64,000 nt of DNA from Escherichia coli (GCF_044324785.1 NZ_CP172127.1), one strand, 5' to 3'; shown: positions 44,493 through 50,438, counted from the stretch's first letter. The notes: a model not told the origin generated them from the letters alone. Program-made: numbers and translations.

Positions 44493-44506
44493 TTGATAAC
44501 GATCAA
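44493..44506 (+). promoter_or_regulatory. FNR-box upstream of ydhY (TTGATAACGATCAA)
   Basis: perfect TTGAT-N4-ATCAA consensus about 200 bp upstream of the ydhY ATG; the ydhYVWXUT operon is reported to be FNR-activated. Confidence 0.7.
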
Positions 44507-44707
44507 TGTTAAGGGCTCAGAATAATCACATTATTTTTTCTCCTAACCATAAAGGATTAGTTTATCGGCGTTAAATCTTTTCTCATACACTATCGGGTTA
44601 GGGAAAATATCTGGTGTTGGGGACAGAGTCAGCAGCGTATTAGTTGAATGCTTAATATCAGGCTGCTGAATTGTCAGCACTGTGTTTGCGAAGAGGATGC
44701 GAAATAA

Positions 44708-45334
44708 ATGAACCCGGTTGATCGTCCACTATTAGATATTGGCTTAACGCGATTAGAATTCTTGCGTATATCAGGAAAAGGCCTTGCTGGTCTAACAATT
44801 GCCCCTGCGTTACTGTCTCTTTTGGGTTGCAAACAGGAAGATATTGATAGCGGCACAGTAGGGTTGATAAATACACCCAAAGGGGTGCTGGTGACCCAGC
44901 GAGCGCGATGCACGGGTTGCCACCGCTGTGAAATCTCTTGTACCAACTTCAACGATGGCTCAGTAGGGACATTCTTCTCCCGTATCAAAATCCATCGCAA
45001 TTATTTCTTTGGCGACAACGGGGTTGGCTCTGGCGGCGGCCTGTATGGCGATCTCAACTATACCGCCGACACCTGCCGTCAATGCAAAGAGCCGCAATGC
45101 ATGAACGTCTGCCCGATTGGTGCGATTACCTGGCAGCAGAAAGAAGGCTGTATTACCGTCGATCATAAACGTTGTATTGGCTGTAGCGCCTGTACGACGG
45201 CATGCCCGTGGATGATGGCCACCGTAAATACCGAAAGTAAAAAATCCTCGAAATGTGTGTTATGCGGTGAATGCGCAAACGCCTGCCCAACAGGGGCGTT
45301 AAAAATTATCGAGTGGAAAGATATTACTGTGTGA
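44708..45334 (+). CDS. ydhY: 4Fe-4S ferredoxin-like subunit
   Basis: 208-aa ORF with multiple CxxCxxCxxxCP motifs. Confidence 0.88.
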   Translation: MNPVDRPLLDIGLTRLEFLRISGKGLAGLTIAPALLSLLGCKQEDIDSGTVGLINTPKGVLVTQRARCTGCHRCEISCTNFNDGSVGTFFSRIKIHRNYFFGDNGVGSGGGLYGDLNYTADTCRQCKEPQCMNVCPIGAITWQQKEGCITVDHKRCIGCSACTTACPWMMATVNTESKKSSKCVLCGECANACPTGALKIIEWKDITV

Positions 45335-45354
45335 ATCTTGCAAAGGAAAAAATC

Positions 45355-48171: not shown

Positions 48172-48840
48172 ATGTCCTTCACTCGACGCAAATTTGTTCT
48201 GGGGATGGGAACAGTAATCTTTTTTACTGGTTCTGCGTCTTCTCTGTTAGCGAACACGAGGCAAGAAAAGGAAGTTCGGTATGCCATGATTCATGACGAG
48301 TCACGGTGCAATGGCTGTAATATTTGCGCCCGCGCATGCCGTAAAACTAACCACGTCCCCGCTCAGGGAAGCCGTTTATCGATAGCACACATTCCAGTCA
48401 CCGATAACGACAACGAAACGCAGTATCACTATTTTCGGCAGTCATGCCAGCACTGTGAAGATGCTCCTTGCATCGACGTATGCCCGACAGGGGCGTCGTG
48501 GCGTGATGAGCAGGGGATCGTGCGGGTAGAAAAATCGCAGTGCATCGGCTGCAGTTATTGCATTGGCGCTTGCCCGTACCAGGTTCGCTACCTTAACCCT
48601 GTCACTAAAGTGGCAGATAAATGTGATTTCTGCGCTGAGTCCCGACTGGCAAAAGGCTTTCCGCCCATTTGCGTCAGCGCCTGCCCGGAACACGCCTTGA
48701 TCTTTGGTCGCGAAGATAGCCCAGAAATTCAGGCGTGGTTGCAGGAAAATAACTACTATCAATATCAGCTACCTGGTGCCGGGAAACCGCATCTGTATCG
48801 CCGATTCGGTCAACATTTGATTAAAAAGGAAAATGTATGA
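48172..48840 (+). CDS. ydhX: Tat-exported 4Fe-4S ferredoxin-type subunit
   Basis: ORF track 48121..48840; internal ATG gives MSFTRRKFVLGMG with a twin-arginine motif; four Cys clusters. Confidence 0.85.
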   Translation: MSFTRRKFVLGMGTVIFFTGSASSLLANTRQEKEVRYAMIHDESRCNGCNICARACRKTNHVPAQGSRLSIAHIPVTDNDNETQYHYFRQSCQHCEDAPCIDVCPTGASWRDEQGIVRVEKSQCIGCSYCIGACPYQVRYLNPVTKVADKCDFCAESRLAKGFPPICVSACPEHALIFGREDSPEIQAWLQENNYYQYQLPGAGKPHLYRRFGQHLIKKENV

Positions 48841-49622
48841 ACCCGTCGCAACATGCTGAACAGTTTCAGAGCCAGTTGGCGAACTATGTGCCACAGTTCA
48901 CTCCCGAATTTTGGCCGGTGTGGTTGATCATTGCCGGACTATTGCTGGTTGGGATGTGGTTGGTGCTGGGGCTGCATGCCTTGCTTCGTGCGCGTGGCGT
49001 GAAGAAATCAGCCACCGATCATGGTGAGAAGATTTATCTTTACAGCAAAGCGGTCAGATTATGGCACTGGTCGAATGCGTTACTCTTTGTATTGTTGCTG
49101 GCAAGTGGGCTGATAAATCACTTTGCGCTGGTGGGCGCAACTGCGGTTAAAAGTCTGGTTGCGGTGCATGAAGTTTGCGGATTTTTGTTACTGGCATGCT
49201 GGCTCGGCTTTGTTCTGATCAATGCCGTTGGGGGTAATGGTCACCACTATCGCATTCGTCGTCAGGGTTGGCTGGAGCGAGCGGCAAAACAAACGCGATT
49301 TTATTTGTTTGGCATTATGCAGGGGGAAGAACATCCTTTCCCGGCAACAACCCAGTCTAAATTTAATCCCTTACAGCAGGTTGCCTATATTGGTGTCATG
49401 TATGGATTGCTGCCGTTGTTACTATTGACGGGGCTGCTGTGTCTCTATCCGCAAGCCGTGGGAGATGTGTTTCCTGGCGTAAGATACTGGTTATTGCAGG
49501 CGCATTTTGCTCTGGCATTTATAAGCCTCTTTTTTATCTTCGGTCATCTTTATCTTTGCACCACGGGGCGTACGCCACACGAAACCTTTAAAAGCATGGT
49601 CGATGGCTATCACCGGCACTAA
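48837..49622 (+). CDS. ydhU: membrane cytochrome b-type subunit (PhsC/NrfD-like)
   Basis: 261-aa hydrophobic ORF with conserved His in TM helices; ATGA overlap with ydhX. Confidence 0.85.
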   Translation: MNPSQHAEQFQSQLANYVPQFTPEFWPVWLIIAGLLLVGMWLVLGLHALLRARGVKKSATDHGEKIYLYSKAVRLWHWSNALLFVLLLASGLINHFALVGATAVKSLVAVHEVCGFLLLACWLGFVLINAVGGNGHHYRIRRQGWLERAAKQTRFYLFGIMQGEEHPFPATTQSKFNPLQQVAYIGVMYGLLPLLLLTGLLCLYPQAVGDVFPGVRYWLLQAHFALAFISLFFIFGHLYLCTTGRTPHETFKSMVDGYHRH

Positions 49623-49625
49623 CGA

Positions 49626-50438
49626 ATGATCATTACACGAGCAGACCTGCGAGAATGGCGTATCGGAGCGGTGATGTATCGCTGGTTCCTGCGCCATTTC
49701 CCACGCGGCGGTAGTTATGCCGATATTCATCATGCACTGATTGAGGAAGGATATACGGACTGGGCGGAGAGTCTGGTTGAGTATGCGTGGAAAAAATGGC
49801 TGGCGGATGAAAACTTCGCGCATCAGGAAGTTTCCTCTATGCAAAAACTGGCCACAGACCCCGGAGAGATACCATTTTGCAGTCAGTTTGCCCGCAGCGA
49901 CGATCATGCTCGCATCGGCTGTTGTGAGGATAACGCCCGAATCGCAACCGCTGGGTATGCCGCGCAAATTGCCAGTATGGGTTATAGCGTGCGGATTGGA
50001 AGTGTCGGCTTTAACAGTCACATTGGCAGCTCCGGTGAACGCGCACGGGTTGCTGTAACCGGTAATTCTTCGCGGATAAGCAGCGCTGGAAATAGTAGTC
50101 GGATTGCGAATACCGGAATGCGAGTACGCGTTTGTACATTGGGTGAACGGTGTCATGTCGCCAGTAATGGTGACCTGGTGCAAATCGCCAGCTTTGGCGC
50201 AAACGCCAGAATTGCCAACAGCGGCGACAATGTACACATCATTGCCAGCGGTGAAAATTCAACGGTAGTGAGCACGGGCGTGGTCGACTCAATTATTCTC
50301 GGGCCAGGGGGAAGCGCCGCACTGGCATATCATGACGGCGAAAGAGTTCGCTTCGCCGTCGCCATTGAAGGTGAAAACAATATTCGAGCCGGAGTCCGCT
50401 ATTGCCTTAATGAACAGCATCAGTTTGTTGAGTGCTGA
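49626..50438 (+). CDS. ydhT: repeat-containing protein of unknown function
   Basis: 270-aa ORF; last gene of the ydhY-T cluster; contains about 14 tandem 9-residue repeats. Confidence 0.85.
   Translation: MIITRADLREWRIGAVMYRWFLRHFPRGGSYADIHHALIEEGYTDWAESLVEYAWKKWLADENFAHQEVSSMQKLATDPGEIPFCSQFARSDDHARIGCCEDNARIATAGYAAQIASMGYSVRIGSVGFNSHIGSSGERARVAVTGNSSRISSAGNSSRIANTGMRVRVCTLGERCHVASNGDLVQIASFGANARIANSGDNVHIIASGENSTVVSTGVVDSIILGPGGSAALAYHDGERVRFAVAIEGENNIRAGVRYCLNEQHQFVEC
49908..50285 (+). repeat. tandem 27-bp (9-codon) coding repeats within ydhT, consensus x-[RH]-[IV]-x-x-x-G-x-x
   Basis: translation shows ARIGCCEDN/ARIATAGYA/AQIASMGYS/VRIGSVGFN/SHIGSSGER/ARVAVTGNS/SRISSAGNS/SRIANTGMR/VRVCTLGER/CHVASNGDL/VQIASFGAN/ARIANSGDN/VHIIASGEN/STVVSTGVV. 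Confidence 0.8.

Follow-up and report, generated by a model that had tools for sequence, protein, structure and literature searches.

How do the six products of the ydhYVWXUT operon fit together, on which side of the inner membrane would their catalytic subunit work, and what kind of reaction would it carry out? These questions are raised by positions 44,493 to 50,438 of a 64,000-nucleotide stretch of DNA from Escherichia coli (GCF_044324785.1 NZ_CP172127.1; one strand, 5' to 3'; "the window" hereafter). An earlier reading by a model from the sequence alone—the original prediction—had recognized there an anaerobic oxidoreductase operon, and had found its topology confusing in that an exported ferredoxin was combined with a cytoplasmic enzyme of the aldehyde ferredoxin oxidoreductase (AOR) family. 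The locus is the oxygen-regulated ydhYVWXUT operon of E. coli, which has already been described and which encodes a membrane-linked molybdenum enzyme. With moderate confidence, we read it as encoding a two-module, membrane-associated reductase of the AOR/WOR molybdoenzyme family that would face the periplasm and be linked to quinol.

Identity of the operon

Six intact open reading frames (ORFs), ydhY, ydhV, ydhW, ydhX, ydhU, and ydhT, lie on the same strand between positions 44708 and 50438, and each of their products matches its own NCBIfam equivalog model with a score far above the curated cut-off. YdhV carries the domains AFOR_N (PF02730, 1.9e-67) and AFOR_C (PF01314, 8.1e-48), and YdhY and YdhX each match Fer4_11 and contain 16 cysteines in four cluster motifs, which in YdhY are of the CxxCxxCxxxC type; the operon identity, the AOR-family assignment of YdhV, and the two poly-ferredoxins named in the original prediction were all borne out. 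The protein lengths (208, 700, 215, 222, 261, and 270 amino acids) match those of the E. coli K-12 proteins. The DNA of the window is 100% identical to that of E. coli strain N3, in which RefSeq annotates the same genes (with the start of ydhW at 47470, versus 47461 here), and the operon was found with at least 80% coverage in 5393 of 5426 complete E. coli genomes. Compared with the K-12 operon (Partridge et al. 2008, Microbiology 154:608; for YdhV, Reschke et al. 2019), which has the same six genes, gene order, FNR box, and promoter architecture, the window shows only strain-level sequence differences. The central finding, an anaerobic oxidoreductase operon under FNR control, is already published, and FNR dependence and co-transcription from ydhY to ydhT, on which the original prediction had staked its case, have been answered positively in the literature. 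What we add is modest, and consists of a change from RR to RL in the N-terminus of YdhY, a two-module structure of the operon, and predicted folds for YdhW and YdhT.

A conserved core and an enterobacterial extension

A search with YdhV against 1.84 billion cluster representatives, followed by a scan of species-representative genomes, yielded 79 loci, against whose ORFs the six E. coli proteins were run by BLAST; for the non-enterobacterial loci, neighboring ORFs were clustered and then annotated with NCBIfam. This comparison of genome context, which the original prediction had proposed, divides the operon in two. The genes ydhY, ydhV, and ydhW are adjacent in Enterobacterales and in about 45 loci spread over Firmicutes, Spirochaetes, Coriobacteriia, Desulfobacterota, Chloroflexi, and Shewanella, and ydhX, ydhU, and ydhT occur, among the 79 loci, only in five enterobacterial genera (Escherichia, Citrobacter, Budvicia, Brenneria, and Proteus). 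The longest gap in the operon lies at the ydhW-ydhX junction (63 nt here, up to 207 nt in Budvicia), and four Syntrophaceae-like loci encode a cytochrome b with four transmembrane segments between the homologues of ydhY and ydhV. By this phyletic pattern, the operon consists of two modules—a conserved core, Y-V-W, and an enterobacterial addition made up of the electron-entry pair X-U and YdhT.

Genes for export and for cofactor maturation stand beside the core in many non-enterobacterial loci: those for TatC, a component of twin-arginine translocation (Tat), in 12 loci, for the FdhD sulfurtransferase in 11, for a MoeA-like protein in 10, for TatA in 5, and for an XdhC-family AOR maturation factor in 4. 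This census widens what PMC13328260 gives for one organism. CsWOR41 LSW of Cetobacterium somerae (PMC13328260) shares with the E. coli system the L-S-W trio (YdhV, YdhY, and YdhW), a Tat-type N-terminus of the small subunit, and a Cys ligand on the large subunit. The same paper (June 2026) assigns YdhV and YdhY to Class V, clade 41, in which no enzyme has an assigned activity or role; in keeping with this placement, the Y-V-W trio is adjacent in the window and the extra cysteine of YdhV, Cys336, is conserved. Unlike CsWOR41 and Class V, the E. coli system has RL instead of RR in its small subunit, possesses YdhT, a cytochrome b, and a further Tat ferredoxin in addition to the trio, and is without adjacent tatAC, fdhD, moeA, or tupABC; metal preference also differs, being Mo for YdhV and W for CsWOR41.

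The signal-like N-terminus of YdhY

Residues 13-41 of YdhY form a Tat/lipobox-like segment, LTRLEFLRISGKGLAGLTIAPALLSLLGC, which is homologous to the Tat/lipoprotein-type signals of its relatives and in which RR has become RL (motif T-R-L-E-F-L-R). All 50 complete non-enterobacterial YdhY homologues carry [ST]RRxF[LM]K, and all 7 enterobacterial ones carry R-L. The hydrophobic region and an LLGC ending in C41 have been retained, with a lipobox-like LxGC present in 7/7 Enterobacterales and in 19 of the 50 others. Among enterobacterial genera, the segment is 83-97% identical, versus 74-93% for the Fe-S core of the protein, and identity to Firmicutes is 52-66% for the segment versus 51-53% for the core. 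A cleavable signal is seldom so well conserved, which suggests that a conserved partner binds the segment or that it stays in the mature protein. A full-text literature search returned only PMC13328260 as mentioning both ydhY and twin-arginine, and the RL change is not described there. Two placements in the original prediction do not agree with these results: YdhY was called cytoplasmic, against the homology of its N-terminus to exported signals, and YdhV was called a cytoplasmic AOR, against published predictions of a periplasmic complex (PMC4257093, PMC13328260) and the relatives that adjoin tatA or tatC.

The RL change invites another topology, one that we consider unlikely, in which, in Enterobacterales, loss of the second arginine leaves YdhY and YdhV on the cytoplasmic side, the conserved hydrophobic N-terminus serving as an anchor or docking peptide, and in which YdhX and a dihaem YdhU form a trans-membrane conduit linking a periplasmic or quinone-pool partner to YdhV. 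The contrast of RL in 7/7 enterobacterial sequences with RR in 50/50 others coincides exactly with the gain of X-U-T, and remnants of Tat signals are found on enzymes that are not exported, such as NarG; hitchhiking on the Tat signal of a partner is, however, well established and accounts for RL equally well. The segment is under strong purifying selection and is not decaying, and YdhT and YdhW both are without signal peptides, which would suit a cytoplasmic complex, whereas the RR-bearing relatives are all exported and many adjoin tatAC. In systems of the PhsABC/FdnGHI type, moreover, the four-cluster ferredoxin bridges to the catalytic subunit on the same outer side, and a flip would leave YdhX without an identified periplasmic partner. 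YdhV does accumulate with its cofactor when the rest of the operon is absent (PMC13328260), a point in favor of the flip, against which stand the published predictions of a periplasmic complex (PMC4257093).

The electron module YdhX-YdhU

The Tat signal of YdhX is canonical (MSFTRRKFVLG...SLLA): the segment MSFTRRKFVLGMGTVIFFTGSASSLLA combines a twin arginine, a hydrophobic region, and a predicted AxA-like cleavage site, so that the RRxFVLG motif had been read correctly. The RR is present in all Enterobacterales loci, and YdhX is listed among predicted Tat substrates (PMC7549933). Its best NCBIfam match is NrfC, at 248 bits (cut-off, 378 bits), and it is most like NrfC, DsrO, and TtrB, in each case below the cut-off of the model. 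For YdhU, a hydropathy scan predicts five transmembrane segments, and the protein scores 459 bits against the PhsC model NF011582 (cut-off, 204 bits) and 8.9e-31 against the cytochrome b561 domain PF01292; its profile matches comprise only cytochrome b561, HyaC, FdnI, and PhsC models, with no match to NrfD. The label "PhsC/NrfD-like" given to YdhU earlier thus conflates two unrelated families of membrane anchors, and its PhsC half alone stands. The first transmembrane segment of YdhU is enterobacteria-specific. In Escherichia albertii NBRC 107761 (L001, 4038-4787), YdhU has 249 amino acids, and about 12 residues of this first segment are missing.

As a pair, YdhX and YdhU resemble PhsB/PhsC and FdnH/FdnI, an analogy in which the ferredoxin would be docked on the outer face of the membrane. 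Shared with PhsABC and FdnGHI are the Tat-exported four-cluster ferredoxin and the PF01292 b-type cytochrome anchor. The differences are that YdhX lacks the C-terminal transmembrane helix seen in FdnH, and that the Ydh catalytic subunit is an AOR-family enzyme with a bis-molybdopterin (bis-MPT) cofactor and an extra ferredoxin, YdhY, and not an enzyme with bis-MGD (MGD, molybdopterin guanine dinucleotide).

The RefSeq name phsC for ydhU raises the question of whether the operon encodes a reductase of sulfur compounds such as thiosulfate or polysulfide, analogous to PhsABC. We think this quite improbable. Its case is built on the score of YdhU on the PhsC equivalog model and the corresponding PGAP name, and on the likeness of YdhX to the Tat ferredoxins NrfC, DsrO, and TtrB of sulfur and nitrite reductases; these PhsC-like and NrfC-like parts are, however, the electron-entry module only, which is missing from most members of the clade. 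No PhsA-type catalytic subunit of the DMSO reductase family was found among the six proteins or the flanking ORFs, and where a sulfur reductase analogous to PhsABC would have a bis-MGD subunit, the operon has a catalytic subunit of the AOR type. The FdhD sulfurtransferase genes near relatives could be counted for sulfur chemistry, yet they are more likely to serve sulfuration of the cofactor.

The catalytic subunit YdhV

Relatives of YdhV in the PDB, by sequence, are only the solved AOR, FOR, and BamB structures. The four ligands of the single [4Fe-4S] cluster beside the pterin, C307, C310, C314, and C558, show no variation across 16 relatives, the first three aligning with the CxxCxxxC of P. 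furiosus AOR, and C336 likewise does not vary among the 8 closest cluster representatives. Against solved AORs, only the N-terminal domain aligns well, and domains 2 and 3 diverge. The cofactor of YdhV is bis-Mo-MPT (PMC9103625, PMC12096430), and no substrate was found for the enzyme (PMC9103625). According to a 2025 review (PMC12096430), Cys336 is an extra metal ligand, and the second-shell residues of aldehyde-oxidizing AORs are missing; both features are common to the benzoyl-CoA reductase BamB, which forms the sister clade within the AOR family. A search of the PDB with the active-site segment of YdhV (residues 280-420) gave no hit, and BamB could not be aligned there, so that what is said here of Cys336 and BamB is taken from the literature. 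BamB itself is cytoplasmic, binds W, and belongs to a BamBCDEFGHI complex, in contrast to the Ydh system, which is Tat- and membrane-associated and prefers Mo.

Taken at face value, the annotation would make YdhV a soluble cytoplasmic aldehyde:ferredoxin oxidoreductase that detoxifies or oxidizes aldehydes with YdhY as its ferredoxin, leaving YdhX, YdhU, and YdhT as an unrelated or loosely coupled electron sink. This we hold to be highly improbable. The AFOR_N and AFOR_C domains, the NCBIfam name "aldehyde ferredoxin oxidoreductase", and the nearest solved structures, which are those of AOR and FOR, are what one would expect of such an enzyme, although good alignment to solved AORs is confined to the N-terminal domain, and the Cys336 ligand and the missing second-shell residues, shared with BamB, point elsewhere (PMC12096430). 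YdhV has no signal peptide of its own, as a cytoplasmic enzyme would not, but the small subunit of its relatives is Tat-targeted. Further, the clade relative CsWOR41 was inactive on 46 aldehydes (PMC13328260), and the search for a YdhV substrate was likewise negative. Because of the active-site literature and these negative aldehyde screens, we disfavor the product name; YdhV is probably not an aldehyde oxidase. That the substrate is undefined, as the original prediction had it, was still the case in PMC13328260 (2026).

In five loci of Coriobacteriia (L015, L017, L023, L028, and L062), multi-pass membrane proteins with a C-terminal LuxR-type helix-turn-helix stand beside the homologues of ydhV and ydhY. 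Membrane LuxR-type regulators in Eggerthellaceae accompany substrate-inducible reductases of xenobiotics or polyphenols. These neighbors hint at a small organic substrate.

YdhW and YdhT

Neither YdhW nor YdhT matched any entry of the local Pfam library. For YdhW, a confident model built from a 36-sequence alignment (predicted local distance difference test, pLDDT, 90.8) has two winged-helix domains in tandem, preceded by an acidic N-terminus that is disordered, and a search of AFDB50 with this model returned only uncharacterized proteins of the YdhW family. The family has a median isoelectric point (pI) of 4.6, a conserved VRxESxxYPRP motif, and no signal peptide. A relationship to the chaperones TorD, DmsD, NarJ, or NapD failed a test of the fold, which is neither the all-helical one of TorD nor the ferredoxin-like one of NapD. 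A role as a DNA-binding regulator is unlikely in view of the acidic pI and the translational coupling of ydhW to ydhV across phyla. The gene keeps strict synteny with Y-V, and fdhD and tatC often come after it; going by this synteny only, YdhW may be an escort or assembly factor, or a third subunit. In Proteus penneri ATCC 33519 (L064, ~5392-6110), the reading frame of ydhW ends prematurely and the conserved C-terminus, MSYGKARGLTEWIEVEQHENP, is carried on in a different frame, which makes it either a frameshifted pseudogene or an assembly error.

YdhT is rarer, with 47 homologues in 5.8 billion sequences, nearly all of them in Enterobacterales. Its residues ~87-236 comprise at least 13 consecutive nine-residue repeats, xxIxxxGxx, the Gly of which is invariant across genera. 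The model (pLDDT 86) has a helical domain and then a beta-solenoid, its structural matches are generic beta-helices, and a signal peptide is lacking. A repeat protein of greater length, P0047 (Pfam PF24703), is the farthest homologue.

Proposed topology and mechanism

In the topology that we favor, an ancient module found in many phyla would comprise the four-cluster ferredoxin YdhY, the catalytic subunit YdhV, and YdhW as a cytoplasmic, acidic tandem winged-helix protein, and a second module, confined to Enterobacterales, would comprise the Tat-exported ferredoxin YdhX, the quinol-reacting cytochrome b YdhU, and YdhT as a cytoplasmic solenoid. YdhV and YdhY would fold and gain their cofactors in the cytoplasm and then cross the membrane, folded, via Tat, perhaps escorted by YdhW through binding to the conserved signal-like segment of YdhY; because YdhY has RL, the RR signal of YdhX probably supplies or assists the targeting. 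Menaquinol would be oxidized at YdhU, and electrons would pass via its haems to periplasmic YdhX, on to YdhY, and from there to the Mo center of YdhV, which may reduce a small molecule, probably not an aldehyde, at the periplasmic face. The periplasmic orientation is suggested by the RR in relatives of YdhY, by the tatA and tatC neighbors, and by the conserved RR of YdhX, and activation by FNR together with repression by nitrate fits a low-potential anaerobic reductase that is either respiratory or detoxifying.

Several points weigh against this topology and mechanism. With RL instead of RR in YdhY of the window and of all 7 enterobacterial loci, Tat targeting would normally be disabled, and the lipobox-like Cys41 is followed by K or T, where Asp would be expected if the protein were to stay in the inner membrane. 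YdhW, cast as the escort, is without any known Tat-chaperone fold. The change from RR to RL and the gain of X-U-T are one evolutionary event, and their association carries no statistical weight. Recombinant YdhV, expressed in the absence of the other operon genes, has been isolated together with its cofactor (PMC13328260, PMC9103625), and the direction of electron flow is not deducible from regulation alone.

A more specific scenario is tentative, and on the whole we doubt it. When an ancestor of Enterobacterales gained X-U-T, RR in YdhY would have become RL and the remainder of the signal would have been kept for good as a highly conserved functional peptide, with YdhV-YdhY either crossing the membrane only by piggy-backing on YdhX or flipped to the cytoplasmic face, YdhX and YdhU then serving as a trans-membrane electron wire; either way, YdhW would represent a new structural class of signal-peptide-binding escort factor.

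Promoter and leader

The perfect FNR box that the original prediction placed about 200 bp upstream, TTGATAACGATCAA, is the sole zero-mismatch TTGAT-N4-ATCAA in the window; this sequence was found once in the 64 kb, where 0 occurrences are expected by chance, and its center, between 44499 and 44500, lies 208 bp upstream of the ydhY ATG. Both half-sites are kept in the Escherichia and Citrobacter loci, and Budvicia has a degenerate FNR-like site together with a good 7-2-7 site nearer the gene. PMC3688515, citing Partridge et al. 2008, counts ydhYVWXUT among its category 1 FNR operons and records for it FNR-dependent expression, a chromatin immunoprecipitation peak, and an FNR site at -42.5. Combined with the box center, the published -42.5 puts the transcription start near 44542 and therefore implies a 5' untranslated region (UTR) of about 166 nt, in agreement with the long 5' UTR suspected earlier. 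The candidate -10 hexamer, read from the sequence, lies in a region, CACATTAT, that is kept in Escherichia and Citrobacter.

Just downstream of the predicted start lies a NarL/NarP 7-2-7-like site, TAACCATAAAGGATTA, with the counterparts TAACCCTAAAGGATTA in Citrobacter (conserved) and TACCTAGTAAGAGGTA in Budvicia. The 7-2-7 match by itself is not above chance, and we retain the site only for where it lies, for its conservation, and for the repression by NarL/NarP that has been published. Repression by nitrate via NarL/NarP was reported by Partridge 2008, according to its citation in PMC3141248, which also records FNR/NarL control and shows that the ydhY promoter in vitro prefers the sigma-S holoenzyme, with read-through into downstream genes. 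The best explanation of these elements is that the operon would be a class II FNR-activated, nitrate-repressed transcription unit.

Two candidate features of the long leader were rejected. A riboswitch or other structured RNA is not indicated, given that the 5' UTR matched no Rfam family at E <= 10 (the one hit, to a small nucleolar RNA, was spurious) and folded no better than shuffled sequence (minimum free energy z = -1.28). A mini-ORF, ATG CGA AAT AAA TGA (44697-44711), whose stop overlaps the ydhY start, does not keep its frame in Budvicia or Brenneria and is set aside as a conserved element; the surrounding GAGGATG...AAATG is conserved. An inverted repeat, TTTCTCCTAACC / GGTTAGGGAAAA at 44537-44548 and 44596-44607, spans the predicted transcription start and position +55 of the leader. 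Citrobacter keeps its core, CCTAACC/GGTTAGG, and the repeat could act either as an RNA stem or as another NarL-type heptamer (TAACCCG, minus strand).

Gene layout and flanking features

Coordinates are collected in Table 1. The genes are separated by +20, +3 (or +12), +63, -4, and +3 nt, so that the ATGA overlaps of the original prediction reduce to a single one, at ydhX/ydhU. Upstream, a terminator-like hairpin divides fumD, assigned by an NCBIfam search, from the ydhY promoter. At the point where the Y-V-W module meets X-U-T lies a perfect palindrome, CCCTGAAATTTCAGGG, of which Escherichia and Citrobacter keep the stem, with a variable loop. It is not an intrinsic terminator, because no T-run follows it, and it could be an element for mRNA processing or stability or a protein-binding site.

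Table 1. Positions, in the window, of the operon, its regulatory elements, and flanking features
Feature	Start	End	Strand	Description
Terminator-like hairpin	44257	44285	+	3' of fumD (ydhZ); 12-bp stem with 6 GC pairs, T-rich tail
FNR box	44493	44506		TTGATAACGATCAA; perfect TTGAT-N4-ATCAA
Candidate -10 hexamer	44529	44534	+	CATTAT; -13 to -8 from the predicted start at 44542
5' UTR (predicted)	44542	44707	+	~166 nt; derived from the published -42.5
NarL/NarP 7-2-7-like site	44544	44559	+	TAACCATAAAGGATTA; ~+3 to +18; 2 mismatches to consensus
ydhY	44708	45334	+	208 amino acids; small subunit (WorS), 4 x [4Fe-4S]; NF007382, 437 bits
ydhV	45355	47457	+	700 amino acids; large catalytic subunit (WorL), AOR/WOR family; NF007354, 1372 bits
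ydhW	47461	48108	+	215 amino acids; third gene of the conserved core module
Perfect palindrome	48103	48118	+	CCCTGAAATTTCAGGG; 16 nt; covers the ydhW stop codon; unique in the window
ydhX	48172	48840	+	222 amino acids; NrfC/PhsB-like 4 x [4Fe-4S] ferredoxin with canonical Tat signal
ydhU	48837	49622	+	261 amino acids; PhsC-type cytochrome b561 membrane subunit; NF011582, 459 bits
ydhT	49626	50438	+	270 amino acids; N-terminal helical domain, then beta-solenoid (predicted)

At the downstream end, ydhT and the convergent ydhS finish 5 nt apart (50436-50446), which leaves no room for a terminator between them, and the nearest terminator-like hairpin on the plus strand (50644-50661) lies about 200 nt within the coding region of ydhS. 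RefSeq calls ydhS (50444-52054, minus strand) a pseudogene in the 100%-identical strain N3, citing an internal stop and a missing N-terminus; in the window, it is an unbroken ORF of 536 amino acids with an intact GxGxxG N-terminus.

Over the 6.2 kb from 44300 to 50500, only strain N3, among the 5426 complete genomes, reaches at least 99% identity to the window, the rest falling between 95 and 99% (about 98%), and for this reason the source strain would come from a sparsely sampled lineage or the region would be recombinant. Because 33 of the 5426 genomes fall below 80% coverage of the region, occasional loss of the operon is tolerated. In one river-water E. coli strain (NZ_CP147050.1), an IS1A element is inserted within the operon.

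Implications

The ydhYVWXUT operon encodes one of the last molybdoenzymes in E. coli whose reaction is not known, and the clade to which YdhV belongs supplies the majority of AOR-family sequences in databases of the human gut (PMC13328260). The catalytic core to consider is Y-V-W, and not all six genes, and the search should be for a reductase that faces the periplasm and probably does not act on aldehydes. The change from RR to RL in YdhY offers a simple, testable handle on topology and assembly, and knowledge of the topology has to precede any meaningful screen of substrates with the holoenzyme.

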